Shown here in pieces: positions 15,693 through 43,783 of a DNA stretch of 64,000 nt. The number at the start of each line of letters is the position of its first letter. Within the stretch, counting starts at the first letter, position 1. The stretch is taken from the NCBI GenBank assembly GCA_032249735.1, contig JAVVHA010000001.1, positions 70,041-134,040 on the forward strand, read 5' to 3'. Position numbers and translations under genes: made by a program. The DNA is from Dehalococcoidia bacterium (GTDB lineage Bacteria > Chloroflexota > Dehalococcoidia > SM23-28-2 > HRBIN24). A model generated the notes under the pieces. The model worked only from the letters and a program-made list of their open reading frames with translations, made no database searches and was not told where the DNA came from.

Positions 15693-15770
15693 TGGTGGGC
15701 GGTAGAGGACTCGAACCTCTGACCTCAGCGATGTCAACGCTGCGCTCTGCCCACTGAGCTAACCGCCCAC
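15693..15770 (-). tRNA. tRNA-Val (anticodon GAC)
   Basis: The reverse complement GTGGGCGGTTAGCTCAGTGGGCAGAGCGCAGCGTTGACATCGCTGAGGTCAGAGGTTCGAGTCCTCTACCGCCCACCA folds as a cloverleaf. It has GTTCGAG in the T-loop, a UUGACAU anticodon loop and an encoded CCA. Confidence 0.9.
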
Positions 15771-29273: not shown

Positions 29274-30407
29274 TTGGTGGGTGTGGCCCTTAAGCGCCCC
29301 CGCCAACCTGGGATTCTCGATGTGGAAAGCTCGTTAGAGGAATTGGCCCTTCTGGCCCATACGGCTGGCGCCCGGGTGGTGGGCAAAGTCTTCCAGAAGC
29401 TAGACACCCCTAACCCCACCTATTACATCGGCCCTGGCAAACTGCAGGAGATCGCCTCCCTGCGTCCCTCCCTGCAGTACAGCATGGTCATCTTCGACGA
29501 CGAGCTGACTCCTAGCCAGCAGAGGAACCTGGAGCGGGCCCTAGGGGTGAAGGTCATCGACCGCACAGCCCTCATCTTGGACATCTTCGCCCAGCATGCC
29601 CGCACGCGGGAGGGCCGGCTGCAGGTGGAGCTGGCCCAGCACCAGTACCTCCTGCCTCGCTTGCGAGGTCAATGGCCGCACTTAGAGCGGCTGGGCGGCG
29701 GCATCGGCACCCGTGGCCCGGGGGAGACGCAGCTGGAGATGGACCGCCGCCTGGTGAAGCGCCGTATCCAGCAGCTAGAGCGGGAGCTGGCGAAGGTGCG
29801 GCAGCACCGGGCCCTCTACCGACGCCGGCGGAGCCGCGAAGGGCTGCCGGTGGTATCTCTGGTGGGCTATACCAATGCCGGCAAGAGCACCATTATGCGT
29901 GCCCTCTCAGGGGCGGACGTGGTGGTGGCTGACCAGCTCTTCGCCACCCTCGACCCCCTCACCCGGCGTGTCCGCCTGCCAGGTGGTGGCTGGTTCCTTC
30001 TGACTGACACGGTGGGGTTCATCAACAAGCTTCCTCCCCAGGTGGTGGCCGCCTTCCGCGCTACCCTCGAGGAGCTGGCGGAGGCCGACCTCCTCCTCCA
30101 CGTCATCGACATTACCCATCCTAACGCTGCTGAGCAGGCGGAGACGGTGGAGAGGACGCTGGCCGAGCTAGGCCTGGCCGCCAAGCCTCGCATCGCCGTC
30201 CTCAATAAGGTGGACCGTCTCATGGGGGGCGACGGTAGGGCCGTGTGGAACGAGGACGAGGTACACCAGCTCCTGCCCTATGTGCGACAGTGGCAGCCTC
30301 GGGCGGTGCTAGTCTCGGCGTTGAGGCGCTGGGGCCTGGACGAGCTCTTGCGCCAGATCGAGGAGGCCTTGGCCCAGGTGCGCCAGGAGAAGGCCAAGAC
30401 GGCCTAG
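29274..30407 (+). CDS. hflX: GTPase HflX
   Basis: It has the HflX N-domain, the G1 motif GYTNAGKST and DTVGF. Confidence 0.88.
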   Translation: MVGVALKRPRQPGILDVESSLEELALLAHTAGARVVGKVFQKLDTPNPTYYIGPGKLQEIASLRPSLQYSMVIFDDELTPSQQRNLERALGVKVIDRTALILDIFAQHARTREGRLQVELAQHQYLLPRLRGQWPHLERLGGGIGTRGPGETQLEMDRRLVKRRIQQLERELAKVRQHRALYRRRRSREGLPVVSLVGYTNAGKSTIMRALSGADVVVADQLFATLDPLTRRVRLPGGGWFLLTDTVGFINKLPPQVVAAFRATLEELAEADLLLHVIDITHPNAAEQAETVERTLAELGLAAKPRIAVLNKVDRLMGGDGRAVWNEDEVHQLLPYVRQWQPRAVLVSALRRWGLDELLRQIEEALAQVRQEKAKTA

Positions 30408-30748
30408 GTTAGCTCCACCCACTTATCGGCCCAGCGCTGAATGGCCTCCACCACCTCCTGCAGCTCCCTTCCCTTCCTGGTCAACTCATAGTGGACCAGC
30501 AGAGGGGTGACGGAGACCACCTTCTTGCGCACGATGTCCTCCGCCTCTAGCTCCTTAAGGCGCTGGGAGAGGAGCCGATCGCTGATGTTGCCGATGTAGT
30601 CACGGATCTCGGAGAACCGCCGCGGCCCCTTCATGAGGGCGCGGATGACCAGGGGCGTCCACCTCTTGCCCAATACGCGGGCCGCCCGCGCGTATCGTGG
30701 GCAAGGATATTCTAGCTGTATAGGTTGCCGCCGTGCCTTCATCTCCAC
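30404..30748 (-). CDS. HxlR-family transcriptional regulator
   Basis: 114 aa with a winged HTH (LGKRWTPLVIRALMKGPRRFSEI). It is divergent from a DoxX gene, which is the classic arrangement. Confidence 0.8.
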   Translation of the reverse strand: MEMKARRQPIQLEYPCPRYARAARVLGKRWTPLVIRALMKGPRRFSEIRDYIGNISDRLLSQRLKELEAEDIVRKKVVSVTPLLVHYELTRKGRELQEVVEAIQRWADKWVELT

Positions 30749-30852
30749 TAAATTGTAGCTACATCTCTCCGCCTCGGCAAGGGAGGTTGCTTCATCTCTA
30801 CTGGTTTGTTATGTTATTGCATGAGCTAGCAAATCAAAAGAGGAGGTCTGCC

Positions 30853-31269
30853 ATGGACGGAGTCCTCTTGGCGGGGCGCATTCTCACTGCCATCCTGTTC
30901 GTCCTCAGTGGCATAAATCACTTTGCGCAGCGACAGGCTATGAGCCAGTATACGGCCCACATGGGTGTGCCCATGGCCGAGCTGGCGGTGTTGGGCTCCG
31001 GCGCCTACATAGTGGCTGTGGGGCTGCTTTATGCCCTGGGAGTTTGGCCAGACCTGATGGCCCTTCTCTTGGCCGCCTTCTTAGTGCCGGTGGCTCTCAT
31101 CATGCACCGCTTCTGGGCCATCTCAGACCCCGCAATGAGGGCCACCCAGATGGCCCACTTCCTTAAGAACATCGCCTTAGCGGGTGCAGCTCTGGTGGCC
31201 TTTGCTTTCTTTCAGCAGTTCGGGACGGAGGTGGGGTTGACCATCACCGATCCTTTGTTCGGGGGCTAA
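30853..31269 (+). CDS. DoxX-family membrane protein
   Basis: The start was chosen at a GAGGAGG-preceded ATG (MDGVLLAGRILTAILFVLSG). It has 4 TM helices and is ~138 aa. Confidence 0.75.
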   Translation: MDGVLLAGRILTAILFVLSGINHFAQRQAMSQYTAHMGVPMAELAVLGSGAYIVAVGLLYALGVWPDLMALLLAAFLVPVALIMHRFWAISDPAMRATQMAHFLKNIALAGAALVAFAFFQQFGTEVGLTITDPLFGG

Positions 31270-31333
31270 TTATCGACGCGTCAGCCCAGTGTCTGTCGAT
31301 GGTCTAACCATCATCGATCCCTTGTTGGGGGGG
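31235..31333 (+). repeat. Degenerate direct repeat of the DoxX gene 3' end (~31 bp, ~84% identity), copies 35 bp apart
   Basis: Copy 1 is GGTTGACCATCACCGATCCTTTGTTCGGGGGC (31235-31266, encodes LTITDPLFGG*). Copy 2 is GGTCTAACCATCATCGATCCCTTGTTGGGGGGG (31301-31333, would encode LTIIDPLLGG). Confidence 0.7.
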
Positions 31334-31768
31334 CATAGTGCTCACGGGGCATCTCCTCTAGGGTTTCCTTGACCTGGTCAAAGCCCTTGAGGCGCCTCTC
31401 CTCCCATCTCCCCTCCTGCCTCTCGGCCTCCAGCTAAAGGAGCTCGGCGCAATCGAGTATGCCTTGAGCCTCATAGGGGAGCACACGTCTGCCACCTGCG
31501 CTCCCCCACGAGGCGATTAGAGAATTGATAGACGCGAAAGGGGGTGAAATACGCTTGACCCCTTGCCTCAGGGCTTGCAGCTAGACGCGTTCGCGTCAAT
31601 CGAACCAAGCTGAGGTTGAAAGCCGTGCTCGCAGCACCACCCCCTCGTTGTGAGAAGCGCCTCAGGGGAGGAGAGTTAAAGTGGGAGCAGGGTTCGGGGG
31701 GCGACATCTGCGGCCCTCTCAATGGCTGAAGGCCAGGGCAGGGGCTAGCCTCCAGCCTCGCCGCGCCC

Positions 31769-32191
31769 CTAGGATGGCTGATATCTGCCCACCGAGAACG
31801 CCAGGATCATGGGTATGTCAACGGCACCCACCGCCAGCGTCGCGATGAGAAAGGCGAGCTGGCGAGCCGGCAGCTCGTTATAGACGAACACGAACATCAG
31901 CAGCGCGGCGATGAGCCCGTAAGCCACGAGGGTCCAGCCGCCCACCGTGAAGAAGGGGCGCCAGGCGAAGTCGCGGGCCCGGGCCAGCGCGACGACGTTG
32001 ACCACCACAGCCGCCGCGGCAACGCTCAGCAGGCCGATAGCAGGCGCAAGGGGCGGCTCATTGGGCAGCGAGGCGGAGAGGTAGCTCACCCCCGAGATGG
32101 CGAGCCCCAGGGCCAACGCCCCTACCAAAGCTACCGGTGGCAGCTTTCGTTCCGGGCCGACGTCCCCTGCCGTCCGCCCGACCTCGCTCAT
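31769..32191 (-). CDS. Hypothetical polytopic membrane protein (140 aa)
   Basis: It has ~4 hydrophobic helices. Its start overlaps the stop of the upstream membrane protein by ATGA. Confidence 0.5.
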   Translation of the reverse strand: MSEVGRTAGDVGPERKLPPVALVGALALGLAISGVSYLSASLPNEPPLAPAIGLLSVAAAAVVVNVVALARARDFAWRPFFTVGGWTLVAYGLIAALLMFVFVYNELPARQLAFLIATLAVGAVDIPMILAFSVGRYQPS

Positions 32192-32802
32192 GACGCCAGC
32201 CTCGCCATGATGATCAGCGTCGCCACCTGCATGACCCCGAGGACGCCTGCACTGTACACGAACCGTCGCATTAGCCGCTCGATGAGCTCCCCGTTCGGCT
32301 CAGGCTTGCGCATCTCAAACAGCACCGCTAGATTGGTTGGCTCGTTCACTCCCAGGGCGACCATCGTCATTACACCCACGACGGCGAACGACGCCAACAC
32401 CCACGCGTGGTGCGGATGAGCGGAGTAGATGGTGCCCAGCTTGACAGCGAGCTGGAAGCCCGCCACCAGCGTGACGGTGACTACCGTCGGCATGATCAGG
32501 GACATCTGGGGCATGAGACGGGAGGTGAGCTCAAGCCTCGCCTGCATCGACATCCGCCCCAAAAGGGGGCCAATCACCAGGCCGAAGAACAGGTCGATGA
32601 TGGTCCATGCCGCCCCGAAGGCCACGTGAGCGAACTCGAGGGCCCATAGCCAGCCGCCCACAACCGCGGTGAGGAGGAAAGCCAGCGCCACCCCAACGAA
32701 CGGCAACCCGGCTAGTGGCACAATGGTGCGGGGCGGTCGTGCCAGTTCCCAAACGGCATGACCCGGCGGGATCGCAGCTGGCTCGGGCGTAGCATCTGTC
32801 AT
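32188..32802 (-). CDS. Hypothetical polytopic membrane protein (204 aa)
   Basis: It has ~5 hydrophobic helices and is first in a two-gene operon. A clean sigma70-like promoter lies directly upstream. Confidence 0.5.
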   Translation of the reverse strand: MTDATPEPAAIPPGHAVWELARPPRTIVPLAGLPFVGVALAFLLTAVVGGWLWALEFAHVAFGAAWTIIDLFFGLVIGPLLGRMSMQARLELTSRLMPQMSLIMPTVVTVTLVAGFQLAVKLGTIYSAHPHHAWVLASFAVVGVMTMVALGVNEPTNLAVLFEMRKPEPNGELIERLMRRFVYSAGVLGVMQVATLIIMARLAS

Positions 32803-32817
32803 GATAGTATTGACGGT

Positions 32818-32846
32818 ATGTTACGACTGATAGCGGACCTTGTCAA
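32818..32846 (-). promoter_or_regulatory. Candidate sigma70-type promoter TTGACA-17-TAACAT for the membrane-protein operon
   Basis: On the minus strand the sequence reads TTGACAaggtccgctatcagtcgTAACAT, and the -10 element ends 15 nt before the ATG at 32802. No SD is visible, so the transcript may be near-leaderless. The region is AT-rich and flanked by a TTGAC...GTCAA inverted repeat. Confidence 0.35.
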
Positions 32847-32901
32847 TAAGTAGCGAGACTGTTTCTTTGTTCAAGTGACCTGAGGTGGCGTCTGCGGAGG
32901 C

Positions 32902-33447
32902 TTAGTCCCCCAGGAGGGTGGTGTAGCCGAGGGCGATGACCTCTTCCACGTACTGGGAACGCCAGCCAGGGTTGGGTATGCGATAGCCGTGTTCCCGGAA
33001 CCAGCGGTGGAGCTTAAGGTACTGTTCCTCAAGATAGCGTCGCCAGGAGTCCTCCTCGCTGAAGAGCTCCGGATCCACCTCCTCCAGCCTTTTGTCCGCC
33101 TCCTCGGGGTCGATGTCCAGGTCCTCTTTCCAGTATTCGGCTAGGTACTCCAGGGACTCCTCCAGCTGGCGCCGGCATTCCTCCAGGATGGCCACCATCA
33201 TGCCGTGCTTGTCCACCTTGCGCCCGCGCAGGCGGACGTCCTTGGCGCATTCGGCGCACAGGGTCACCAGCTTACGGGCCTCACAGTACTCGTCTTTGCG
33301 ACATCCTTCACATAACGGGGCCCAATGGGCCGCCTCGGGCGCCCGCAAATACCCGACATAGATCTCGTCGGCGAGGGCGCCACACCTGGGGCAGCTGACC
33401 TTCTCGGCTAATATCTCGTTAATGGCCCGCTGCCAGTCGATATGCAT
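32902..33447 (-). CDS. Hypothetical Cys-rich protein (zinc-ribbon-like N-terminus, acidic helical C-terminus)
   Basis: 181 aa. The N-terminal 75 aa contain four CxxC pairs (CPRC, CEGC, CAEC) plus single Cys residues. The C-terminal half is acidic with predicted helices. Confidence 0.5.
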   Translation of the reverse strand: MHIDWQRAINEILAEKVSCPRCGALADEIYVGYLRAPEAAHWAPLCEGCRKDEYCEARKLVTLCAECAKDVRLRGRKVDKHGMMVAILEECRRQLEESLEYLAEYWKEDLDIDPEEADKRLEEVDPELFSEEDSWRRYLEEQYLKLHRWFREHGYRIPNPGWRSQYVEEVIALGYTTLLGD

Positions 33448-33508
33448 AGCTCCTCATTCATAATACCATGGGCGTATCATCGCCCTGTCAACCGCCGCCT
33501 TTTGCCCG

Positions 33509-34936
33509 CTAGCCCTTTGGGGCGTCCAAGGTGGGCCAGTGGTGGGCCCAAGGGCGGGCTTGCTCGTAGGCGTAGGCTGCCTGCAGCACCAGGTCCTCGC
33601 GCAACCTGGGCCCGACGATCTGGAGGCCCACTGGCAGGCCGGCATCGGTGAAACCGGCGCGGACGGTGGCCGCAGGGTGGCCCGTGAAGTTGAAGGGATA
33701 GGTGAAGGGGATGTACGCCATAGGGTTCTCCACCGGCTGGCCGGCTATCTCCATGCTGAGACGCCCATGGGCATCTATGGCCTCTGTGGCCGTGGTGGGG
33801 GTGAGGAGCAGGTGGTACCTCTCAAATAGGTGCCAGAGACGGTTGACCCACTCAGCCCGCAGTCGCTGGGCCCAGGCGTACCGCTCCACGTTCACCTCCA
33901 AGGCCCTCTCGGTCATGGCCAGGAAGCCGCGGCCGAACTCATGCCTGTGTTGCGGGAGCTTATCGGCGATGCGGGCCCACGTCTCACCAGCCTCCACCGT
34001 GGCCCACGCAGCGGCTGGGTCGGGGAAGGTCTCCTCCAGCTCCTCTACCTCCCACCCCAGCGACTGAAAGACACGGGCCGCTGCCTCCGCCTCCCGCAAC
34101 ACGTCGGGCTGAACCCTCGCATAACCCAGGGTGGGGCTCCAGGCCACCCGCAGCCGAGGCAACGGCCGCTCCAGACACTCGACATAAGAAATGCCTGGGT
34201 GAGGCAGGGACTTGGGGTCTGCCGGGTGGTCGCCCACCACACAGTCCAGATATAGGGCGGCATCGCGCACGGTGCGGGTGATGGGGCCATAGCAGACCAT
34301 ATCGCCCCATGGGAGCATATCGGTGGGGCCTAAAGGTATGCGGCCGAACTGGGGCTTGATGCCGAAGCAGCCGGTGTAGGCAGCGGGGATGCGGATGGAG
34401 CCTCCGGCGTCCGAGGCGGTAGCCAGGGGCACCATCCCTGCAGCGATGGCCGCTGCCGCGCCGCCGCTGGAGCCCCCGGGGGTCCTCTCCAGATTCCAGG
34501 GGTTACGGGTGGCGCCGAAGAGGAGGTTGCGGCAGAAGAAGGTATAGCCGAACTCGGGGACGTTGGTCTTCCCCACCACTATGGCCCCAGCCCTCTTGAG
34601 CCGCTCCACCTGCACTGAGTCCCTGGAAGGCCAGTTGTCCTTAAAGGGGACGGAACCATAGGTGGTAGGGAGCCCCGCGGCATCCTCCAAGTCCTTTACG
34701 CCGAGGGGAAGGCCGGCCAAAGGCCCCACCTCCTCCCCCCGGGCTATGCGCTCGGCCATCTGGCGCGCCTCTTGCAGCGCCTCCTCCGCCCTGAGACTTA
34801 CAAAGGCGTTAATCACCGGGTTCACTTCCTGGATGTGCCGCAGACACGCCTCCATAAGCTCCACTGGCGAAAGCTCCTTCCGCCGGACAAGGGAAGCCAG
34901 CTCATAGGCGGACATGAAGTTAAGGTCCTGGGCCAT
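33509..34936 (-). CDS. Amidase-signature family amidase
   Basis: It has the GGSSGG amidase signature ([16 protein letters not shown]), a catalytic Ser in GGSIRIP and Lys in LGVKD. Confidence 0.85.
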
Positions 34937-35447
34937 GGCGTCCTCCTTGACATAACTCCTCAGAATACCATCCTGACTGTCCCGGGGCCTCCTCCACCCC
35001 TACGGCCAGGCGGCGCAAGGGGAGGTGAGGTGGCAACGAGGCCTTCAGCTCCCAGGTCAGCCACTGGGCTAACCTCTCGGCGGTGGTATTGTCGATGGGG
35101 AGGGGGAGGCAGTCCTCCTTGGGCAAGAGGTACTGGCGGCCCCCGACCTGAAGGCGATAGGCGTCACCCGTCTCCTCCACCTGCAGGAGTGGGCTTCCCA
35201 TGGGCAACAGGAACCGGTGATGAAGACGGCGACAGAGGGCAGCAGCCAAGCCCCGTAGCTGGCGGAAGTCCATGACCCACCCCTCAGGCGCCAGGTCCCC
35301 CCATACCTCCACCACCAGGCGGTAGTTGTGGCCATGCAGGGGTTCCACCTCCTGGGGCGATACGGTGAAGTGGGCAGCGGCAAACCACAGCTCCGCCCCC
35401 TCTACCACCACCCTAAAGGCAGGGCCATTATACTTCGCACTATGCAC
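34920..35447 (-). CDS. 6-pyruvoyl-tetrahydropterin synthase-like protein (QueD/PTPS family)
   Basis: AAHFTVSP ... PLHGHNY is a canonical PTPS motif. It overlaps the downstream amidase by 17 nt. Confidence 0.7.
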   Translation of the reverse strand: MHSAKYNGPAFRVVVEGAELWFAAAHFTVSPQEVEPLHGHNYRLVVEVWGDLAPEGWVMDFRQLRGLAAALCRRLHHRFLLPMGSPLLQVEETGDAYRLQVGGRQYLLPKEDCLPLPIDNTTAERLAQWLTWELKASLPPHLPLRRLAVGVEEAPGQSGWYSEELCQGGRHGPGP

Positions 35448-35667: not shown

Positions 35668-36246
35668 ATGAGCGGTGCTGGCCAAGCCTATCCGTTGGTG
35701 TTCGATGTGGAATACCCCGAGCGCCTGTCACGCCTGCTCATCTTTGTCAAGTGGCTCCTGGCCCTGCCCCACTGGATCATCCTCTATGGCCTAGGGGTGC
35801 TAGTGGGGGCCATCACCTTCGTGGCCTGGTTTGCCATCCTGTTCACAGGCCGCTATCCCAGGGAACTTTTCGACCTAGTGGTGAAATCCTGGCGGTGGCA
35901 GGCCAACGTCGCTGCCTACGTGGGCCTGATGCGCGATGAGTATCCGCCCTTCTCCTGGGAGGAGGGGCGCTACCCGGTCAGGTTCCAGGTGGAGTATCCA
36001 GAGCGGCTCTCACGGCTCCTCATCTTTGTCAAGTGGCTCCTGGCCCTGCCCCACTATATTGTCCTCTTCCTCTTAGGGCTGGTGGCCTATCTGGCGTGGA
36101 TTGTGGCCTGGTGGGCCATCCTCATCACAGGCCGCTTCCCACGGGCCCTTTTCGACTTCCTGGTGGGGCTAGGGCGCTGGAACTGGCGTGTGCAGGCCTA
36201 CACCAACCTGCTGCGCGACGAATATCCCCCCTTTAGCCTGCGCTGA
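35668..36246 (+). CDS. DUF4389-like membrane protein with internal tandem duplication (tentative family assignment)
   Basis: It has two ~90-aa repeats, each with EYPERLSRLLIFVKWLLALPH[WY]I and two TM helices. An identical 35-bp DNA segment occurs in both halves. Confidence 0.55.
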   Translation: MSGAGQAYPLVFDVEYPERLSRLLIFVKWLLALPHWIILYGLGVLVGAITFVAWFAILFTGRYPRELFDLVVKSWRWQANVAAYVGLMRDEYPPFSWEEGRYPVRFQVEYPERLSRLLIFVKWLLALPHYIVLFLLGLVAYLAWIVAWWAILITGRFPRALFDFLVGLGRWNWRVQAYTNLLRDEYPPFSLR

Positions 36247-41886: not shown

Positions 41887-42228
41887 GGGGACGAGTGGGT
41901 TCGACAGGGAAGGTCGGGCCCGGACAGCAGGCCGAGGTCGCCGCAGGCCTCGTTAAACAGGCGGCAAAAAGTAACTGGCGAGCGCGAGCTTGCCCTTGCC
42001 GCCTAAGGTTTAGGCGGCACGTCGCCCTGGCCTCCCCCCTGGGGGTCGGGAGCGGCGCCAGAGACCAGGGGTGCAGCCTCCTGGCGCCACCGAGGGGGGC
42101 CTAAGAGGAGGTGGCTGGCCCGTCGGCACGCAGCCGACGGCGGTACGGCGGGCGAGAAGTAAGCGTCGGCTATGCCTGTAGGTGGTCCGGGTGGGTCTTC
42201 GCCTGGACGAGGGGTTCGACTCCCCTCC
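41887..42228 (+). ncRNA. ssrA: tmRNA (SsrA), predicted tag ending GERELALAA
   Basis: The 5' GGGGACGAGUGGGUUCGACAGG pairs with the 3' CGUCUCCACCA acceptor. The T-arm is GGGGUUCGACUCCCC. The internal ORF reads ...GGC GAG CGC GAG CUU GCC CUU GCC GCC UAA. It is followed by a T8 run and lies immediately downstream of smpB. Confidence 0.85.
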
Positions 42229-42244
42229 GTCTCCACCATTTTTT

Positions 42245-43492: not shown

Positions 43493-43611
43493 GACATGCG
43501 TAAACCATGCTATCACGGCCCTTACCCTCCACCAACCCTTGACAGGCCTCCTGCGCCATGCTATATAGAAGGGCAAACCGAATATGGCGTCTCCCGGGTG
43601 CCCGCGAGGGC

Positions 43612-43745
43612 TTAATAGGGAAGTGGGGCTAGAAACCCCCGCGGCCGCGCCACTGTAGCAGGGAGCCCCGGCAGAGGCCACTGTCCCCGCAGGGATGGGA
43701 AGGCGCCGAGGGCGGTGAACTGCGAGCCAGGAGACCTGCCCGGGA
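43612..43745 (+). ncRNA. Cobalamin (AdoCbl) riboswitch
   Basis: It has AGGGAAG, GUGGGGCUAGAAACCCC, two GCCACUG motifs and a B12 box GAGCCAGGAGACCUGCC (43724-43740). It lies upstream of a btuFCD-like operon. Confidence 0.7.
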
Positions 43746-43783
43746 GAGGGGTTGCCCCCTCCTCGCGTCGGGGAGGGCACCCA

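Follow-up and report, generated by a model that had tools for sequence, protein, structure and literature searches.

What is encoded by two small membrane-protein genes that lie beside a Cys-rich gene in a Dehalococcoidia bacterium, and do the three genes belong together? The genes are located on the minus strand of a stretch of 64,000 nucleotides (nt) of contig JAVVHA010000001.1 (the window; all coordinates are positions in it). Gene A (32188-32802) encodes a membrane protein of 204 residues with one N-terminal transmembrane (TM) helix and a predicted four-helix bundle. Gene B (31769-32191) encodes its 140-residue partner with four TM segments, which is outside every known family. Gene C (32902-33447) encodes a Cys-rich protein of 181 residues, and adjoins A-B without belonging to the same module. 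An earlier note on this DNA had joined A, B and C with the neighbouring HxlR and DoxX genes into an envelope/redox module. According to the comparison of homologous loci, A-B appears instead to be an autonomous, widespread and uncharacterised two-gene cassette, which is functionally independent of C and of HxlR/DoxX. We consider it an even question whether A and B make up a small integral membrane complex of two subunits that is complete in itself, with the two genes forming a translationally coupled bicistron under a promoter of their own.

The A-B gene pair and its putative promoter

In 83 of 85 loci, the gene directly after A is a homologue of B; of the two exceptions, at least one (L002) ends at a contig edge. 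In the window, A stops and B starts within the sequence ATGA at 32188..32191 (minus strand), which gives a 4-nt overlap and translational coupling. GAGG is present about 7 nt upstream of the ATG of B. The overlap of 4 nt is found in 68 of 80 orthologous loci, and an overlap of 1 nt in 4 more. The earlier description of two overlapping, ATGA-coupled polytopic membrane proteins of 204 and 140 residues agrees with the open reading frames (ORFs) and with the five and four hydrophobic segments of A and B, respectively. Conserved translational coupling is a classic signature of subunits that are produced in fixed proportion. From the gene arrangement, we infer that A and B physically interact as two subunits.

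The called-gene neighbourhoods of A-B differ in every lineage examined. The pair is accompanied by SDH genes and a methyltransferase, by peptidase M24 and DUF2231/ferric reductase, by a glycosyl hydrolase and a cupin, by a metallo-beta-lactamase and an aquaporin, or by S4 and MptA. When the neighbouring ORFs were clustered, no conserved family was detected beside A-B other than the pair itself. An MDR quinone-oxidoreductase seemed to be present downstream in 25 of 81 loci; this candidate was rejected as an artefact of single-linkage clustering and alternative-frame ORFs, and a genuine MDR dehydrogenase follows B in only 2 loci. Neither B nor a conserved neighbour was found beside the distant relatives of A (the loci of a relative named P0339, and 80 metagenome loci). 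No GC anomaly was observed across 28-37 kb of the window.

A putative sigma-70-like promoter, TTGACA-17-TAACAT, precedes A at 32846..32818 (minus strand). It matches the consensus at 10 of 12 positions, and two promoter-type sites were found in the scanned 2.5-kb region, where 0.6 are expected by chance. Between the -10 hexamer and the ATG of A lie only 15 nt (ACCGTCAATACTATC), in which no Shine-Dalgarno sequence is present. Because of this short distance, the leader of the A-B mRNA would be only about 8-9 nt, when transcription is taken to start about 7 nt after the -10 hexamer. The conserved N-termini of the homologues (M-T/A-D/E) support this ATG as the true start. A promoter with almost no leader, as proposed in the earlier note, is consistent with these features. 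The note had also placed the promoter inside a palindromic TTGAC...GTCAA element. This element is merely a 5-nt inverted repeat, and no repeat of 12 nt or longer was reported in the promoter region. The palindrome was rejected as an element, as the GTCAA arm is GTCCA in L099, a contig whose A protein is 97% identical, although both hexamers are retained there.

The promoter of L099 is identical to that of the window (TTGACA-17-TAACAT). In two other Chloroflexi relatives, TTGACA-17-TATAGT (L001) and TTGACA-17-TACACT (L011) are located about 70 nt upstream of the ATG, and both have a leader, which is Shine-Dalgarno-like in L001. No comparable promoter was found in L010. As L001 and L011 also keep the perfect TTGACA and the 17-nt spacer, expression from an own promoter seems to be general among the Chloroflexi copies of A-B. 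The near-leaderless layout appears to be specific to the lineage of the window.

Relatives of A and B, with the predicted fold and probable superfamily of A

Neither Pfam nor NCBIfam gives a match at threshold for A, B or C. The membrane pair is, as the earlier note had stated, without recognisable motifs at this level. Relatives of A are numerous. In a collection of 5.8 billion proteins, 3343 relatives were found at E<=1e-3, and an exhaustive phmmer search against 1.84 billion representatives gave 494 clusters at the same threshold. The best 120 relatives are 56-97% identical and nearly all are about 204 residues long; the named sources are Chloroflexi, Acidimicrobiales, Solirubrobacterales and Dormibacterota, and the identity across phyla is 56-70%. 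In a scan with one genome per species, relatives of A were detected in at least 583 species genomes. The best 80 of these matches are all metagenome-assembled genomes (MAGs), chiefly from Solirubrobacterales and Acidimicrobiales, and also include Gaiellales, Dormibacterota and three Chloroflexi. No relative of A was found on IMG/VR contigs, the PADLOC models gave no match for A, B or C, and profile searches of PDB sequences with the alignments of the three proteins gave nothing meaningful.

The AlphaFold2 model of A was built on the alignment of 49 sequences of the close clade, resulting in a predicted local distance difference test (pLDDT) value of 87 and a predicted template modelling (pTM) score of 0.79. 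The model contains a TM helix at residues 30-49 and then four long helices at residues 52-83, 86-122, 132-165 and 171-203. The hydropathy profile shows five hydrophobic segments, in agreement with five TM helices. The K/R-rich loops 87-95 and 155-179, together with the hydropathy and the positive-inside rule, suggest that the N-terminus is in the cytoplasm. The same rule would put the loops 83-95 and 161-180 on the cytoplasmic side of the membrane and the loop 123-131 outside.

In the close clade, H59, G63, W66, T67, R89, E91, Q117, H132, E163 and R180 of A are invariant, and D70 is nearly so. Two loop motifs, GRMSxPARxEF and EPxNxAVLFExRKPxPN, are also invariant. When full-length relatives down to about 27% identity are added, D70, R89 and P98 stay invariant, H59, W66, T67, P105 and P155 are nearly invariant, and H132 and E91 are lost. 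According to helical arithmetic from the sequence, H59, G63, W66, T67, D70, G74 and G78 of the helix 52-83 are located within about 120 degrees of one face.

The family signal of A was tested using 30 family members against Pfam. DUF4149 is matched by 12 of the 30 members, with the best E of 4e-6 and the bit scores shown below the cut-off of 24.6 bits. DUF2269 is matched by 5 members; the best match (E 3e-5) reaches 24.6 bits against a cut-off of 28 and spans positions 3-147 of the 150 profile positions. Three relatives align residues ~45-190 to the positions ~3-147 of DUF2269 in the same register. Anthrone_oxy is matched by 2 members (best E 4.9e-5). All of these matches are below the Pfam gathering scores, yet they are mutually in register, and such agreement among several divergent members points to remote homology. 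The bundle of four TM helices that characterizes the DUF4149/DUF2269 superfamily is present in the AlphaFold2 model of A and agrees with the hydropathy. Neither A nor its relatives reach the gathering threshold of DUF4149 or DUF2269. Because the sub-threshold matches agree in register, A is probably a remote branch, without a family model, of a superfamily of four-helix membrane proteins (DUF4149/DUF2269/anthrone-oxygenase-like) that is itself uncharacterised. TMEM205, a human protein of the DUF4149 family, is an orphan linked to platinum-drug resistance (PMC9333335).

Among the relatives, P0339 is 33% identical to A and is encoded by a solitary gene downstream of clpX-lon-hupB in MAGs (L096-L098, 4001-4594). 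It is listed in 145 blocks of the collection, and is the family member nearest to the DUF2269 threshold, with 24.6 of 28 bits. Another sequence, P0004 (276 residues, on a 1051-nt JGI contig), was considered as a natural fusion of A and B. This candidate was rejected; P0004 looks like a partial tandem duplication or an assembly chimera of two different A-type sequences.

B has four hydrophobic segments according to hydropathy, and no Pfam or PDB match was found. Its conserved positions are mostly Pro, aromatic and small residues (P18, P19, P43, F75, W77, F80, W86, Y91, F102, A135 and R136). A and B were also considered as paralogues, and this was rejected since hhalign shows no detectable homology between them. 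Only 29 homologues of B were found in a word-indexed search. This apparent rarity is a sensitivity artefact, because a homologue of B is directly downstream of A in nearly all the fetched loci. No B partner was found in 24 contigs of the P0339 loci, and the hidden Markov model of B matched 0 of 80 metagenome loci of the distant clade. B is confined to the Actinomycetota/Chloroflexi/Dormibacterota clade of A. Because the distant relatives of A are without B, B is best read as a lineage-specific accessory subunit that was added to an older single-subunit protein, as far as the distribution of the genes suggests.

Possible functions of A-B

What could such a pair do? We regard as possible, and only tentatively propose, that A-B is a membrane transporter or membrane enzyme of a kind not recognised before, made of two subunits and acting, for instance, on a metal ion or on a lipophilic substrate similar to heme or quinone. 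It would be specific to soil Terrabacteria (Solirubrobacterales, Acidimicrobiales, Dormibacterota and Chloroflexi) and would be the first functional handle on the DUF4149/DUF2269 (TMEM205-like) superfamily. The specific transport-type mechanism described here is more of a conjecture, and we hold it to be doubtful. A-B would form a complex of about nine TM helices that needs no other dedicated component. A is the conserved core of the pair, in which the N-terminal TM helix is followed by the four-helix TM bundle. The conserved face of the first bundle helix (H59, G63, W66, T67, D70, G74 and G78) would line a narrow polar site within the bundle, with H59 near the outer leaflet and D70 in the middle of the membrane. 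Four buried polar residues, Q117, E154, N157 and Q192, would add to this site in the close clade. Either a small cation (a metal ion or a proton) or a small lipophilic ligand may be bound and passed at this site. Access from the cytoplasm would be gated by the cytoplasmic loops, which are almost invariant (GRMSxPARxEF; EPxNxAVLFExRKPxPN...RLMRRF), and B would stabilize the complex or complete the site.

Several points weigh against this proposal. That A would interact physically with B is read from the coupling of their genes. The transport or binding mechanism was derived from conserved residues and from the predicted topology, and no homologue has been characterised. The superfamily link depends on the sub-threshold matches of distant relatives, because A of the window has no Pfam match even at E<=1. 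In addition, the comparison by hhalign of the A profile with Escherichia coli YebZ, a member of the CopD family, gave a probability of 0.2 and an E of 0.34, where a single-sequence template makes a weak test.

A membrane redox protein or enzyme is an unlikely alternative. A-B would carry heme or copper through H59 and H132 and, like the membrane-bound anthrone oxygenases, would oxidise or reduce a lipophilic substrate (a quinone, a tetrapyrrole or a polyketide-like compound). Further membrane redox proteins of this sort are HemJ and PuuD. The two His residues are both invariant in the 49 sequences of the close clade and are both predicted near the same, outer face of the membrane, and the two distant relatives of A that match Anthrone_oxy also fit this function. 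DUF2269, described as a family of unknown function, was reported to show a distant resemblance to PuuD, a urate oxidase, in the membrane domain of the latter (PMC4562309). However, H132 is replaced by Phe, Tyr or Trp in the more distant relatives, so that ligation by two His residues cannot be the ancestral function. Moreover, the neighbourhood contains no conserved gene for a redox partner, for a cytochrome c domain or for cofactor biosynthesis, and the structural matches are non-specific.

Still less is to be said for a role without catalysis or transport, in which A-B would be an assembly factor or a structural or scaffolding part of the membrane and would serve, for instance, a complex of the respiratory chain or the cell envelope in Terrabacteria. 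We judge it quite unlikely. The absence of a conserved genomic partner fits a general housekeeping role, the conserved residues of B are aromatic or structural rather than polar, and the face of the second TM helix of A that contains G63, T67, G74 and G78 is a small-xxx-small helix-packing motif. However, near-invariant H59 and D70 within the membrane and long loop motifs kept across phyla are more typical of an active site or a gate. The relatives of A fall into hundreds of representative clusters, yet A-B does not occur throughout these phyla, which speaks against a core role in assembly.

If the proposal of a two-subunit complex holds, A-B would be a strictly coupled and strongly constrained membrane complex, in which A keeps about 60% identity between phyla. 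Hundreds of soil lineages, most of them uncultured, carry the pair, for which no curated family model exists and whose only annotation is 'hypothetical protein'. To define A-B would justify new family models for A and B, would open the orphan DUF4149/TMEM205-like superfamily to study in a tractable bacterial system, and would remove a misleading guilt-by-association link to the Cys-rich C and HxlR/DoxX. At present, A-B is a 'conserved hypothetical' pair with clear boundaries and not a surprising new system; the weight of the finding would grow with the discovery of a ligand or an activity.

Neighbouring genes and comparison with known families

The linkage of A-B to its neighbours was tested by tblastn of A, B, C, HxlR and DoxX against about 99 loci. 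C was found within 6 kb on either side of A in 0 of about 85 loci, with the near-identical L099 as the sole exception elsewhere, and none of 4 loci with C has A within 5 kb on either side; B, too, is absent from the C loci. Among the other loci with A, L099 alone contains HxlR and DoxX, and it alone repeats the gene order of the window. The envelope/redox module of the earlier note is thus unsupported, as C, HxlR and DoxX are unlinked to A-B across the loci. The note had named two kinds of refuting evidence; the lack of co-conservation was found, and matches to well-characterised families of unrelated function were not.

C has its own conserved neighbour. In every contig of Chloroflexi/Dehalococcoidia examined, C is syntenic with a gene of the 6-pyruvoyl-tetrahydropterin synthase/QueD-like type (PTPS-like; window 32902-35447, and L006-L009). 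In the four independent contigs L006-L009, C lies downstream of this gene with 0-2 amidase genes between them. The genes downstream of C vary: P450, Rieske, MaoC and FMN_red genes are found in bacterium HR25, and methyltransferases in other contigs. A-B merely fills a variable slot between C and HxlR-HflX in the lineage of the window.

The ORF and strand of the 181-residue C are as described in the earlier note, whereas the four CxxC pairs that it had placed in the first 75 residues are not present as such. The Cys residues are located at positions 19, 22, 46, 49, 55, 64, 67 and 91, forming three CxxC pairs (C19/C22, C46/C49 and C64/C67) with the lone C55 and C91. The acidic helical tail was borne out, with 26 Asp/Glu against 13 Lys/Arg in residues 80-181 and predicted helices at 80-108, 126-152 and 161-172. 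C has 272 homologues from Chloroflexi/Dehalococcoidia, nearly all of exactly 181 residues, in which C19, C22, C49, C55, C64 and C67 are invariant and C46 and C91 are present in about 90% of the sequences. The AlphaFold2 model (pLDDT 84.7) shows a beta-rich Cys domain and then three helices, with predicted beta strands at 29-34, 59-63 and 75-78. The Cys domain is matched by Zn_ribbon_3 only below threshold (E 0.062), and the C-terminal three-helix bundle has structural matches only to generic bundles. The motif H-x3-C-x2-C of zinc-binding anti-sigma (ZAS) factors is absent from C, where no His is present 4 residues before any CxxC; H41 is located at x4 and is not conserved. No sigma factor gene was found near C in the window region or in L006-L009. 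On these grounds and with the PTPS-like gene as the conserved neighbour, the assignment of C as a zinc-binding anti-sigma or redox adaptor was set aside. That C, A, B and HxlR/DoxX form one envelope/redox-sensing module, with C as a zinc-binding anti-sigma-like or redox-sensing adaptor, is very improbable: all the genes do fit within 3 kb, C, A and B share a strand in the window and L099, and the eight conserved Cys residues are compatible with two metal sites, but C and A/B are never together in other lineages, the slot between C and HxlR is filled by the P450, Rieske, MaoC and FMN_red genes in HR25, C keeps company with the PTPS-like gene and has neither the ZAS motif nor a nearby sigma factor gene, and A has its own putative promoter in the 99-nt gap after C.

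Other features were observed around these genes. A GC-rich hairpin of 13 bp at 31724..31757 (minus strand) starts 12 nt after the stop codon of B and may be a terminator without a U-tract, a weak assignment; the consensus scan found no T-tract terminator downstream of B. A stretch of about 500 nt (31270-31768) between the convergent DoxX and B genes is free of genes. The RNA fold of 31440-31770 (minus strand) is unusually stable, with a z-score of -3.3, and an imperfect hairpin with 21-nt arms of 81% complementarity is located at 31468-31514. Rfam gave only chance-level matches on the gene-free stretch. The stretch is 98-99% identical in L099, a relative that is too close for judging conservation. 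The last 26 nt of the DoxX gene (31240-31265, ACCATCACCGATCCTTTGTTCGGGGG) are repeated with 88% identity at 31307-31332, 67 nt downstream and past the stop codon. This repeat could be a scar of duplication or recombination at the edge of the variable slot. The HxlR (30404-30748, minus strand) and DoxX (30733-31269, plus strand) genes are divergent. The longest ORFs of the two share 16 nt at their 5' ends, and the true start of DoxX is therefore probably a Met further downstream. In HR25, the orthologue of HxlR adjoins an FMN_red gene instead of DoxX. A membrane protein of 192 residues encoded at 35668-36246 (plus strand) contains two tandem DUF4389 domains with near-identical segments (YPERLSRLLIFVKWLLALPH twice); the protein was found again in L099 and, close to A, in L084. 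Further away, Rfam detected at the gathering threshold a transfer-messenger RNA gene (41887-42238, 118 bits), a cobalamin riboswitch (43579-43757, 103.7 bits) and a tRNA (15696-15768).

C resembles zinc-ribbon proteins and ZAS anti-sigma factors such as RsrA in its paired CxxC motifs on short beta strands and its eight conserved Cys residues. C differs from them in the sub-threshold score against Zn_ribbon_3, in the lack of H-x3-C-x2-C and of an adjacent sigma factor gene, in its confinement to Chloroflexi/Dehalococcoidia, in the synteny with the PTPS-like gene, and in the generic C-terminal bundle.

For A, three kinds of known systems are to be compared. The CopD family (E. coli YebZ; copper handling) is similar in being multi-TM and helical with a conserved His early in a TM helix. 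It differs in that the hhalign probability is as low as given above and A-B has no CopC-like partner or copper genes nearby; no CopD match in Pfam was listed for members of the A alignments A1 or A3. An identity of A as CopD was rejected on the negative hhalign result. CopD and HemJ are placed in the same Pfam clan as DUF4149 and DUF2269, and membership of A in either is not claimed. Anthrone oxygenase (PF08592, formerly DUF1772) is a small 4-TM family which two distant relatives of A match, whereas these matches are partial (positions 5-89 of 106 in the profile) as well as sub-threshold, and A-B is not surrounded by polyketide or other biosynthetic genes.

The closest likeness is to DUF4149 (PF13664; the family of human TMEM205) and DUF2269 (PF10027). 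Like A, these are small membrane proteins with a bundle of four TM helices, and the distant relatives of A match both profiles in register; both families are functionally uncharacterised. In contrast to them, A has an extra N-terminal TM helix and long, highly conserved cytoplasmic loop motifs and, in its clade, an obligate and translationally coupled 4-TM partner, B, which is in no family. A-B would be a variant of this orphan superfamily, distinguished by the extra TM helix and the obligate partner.

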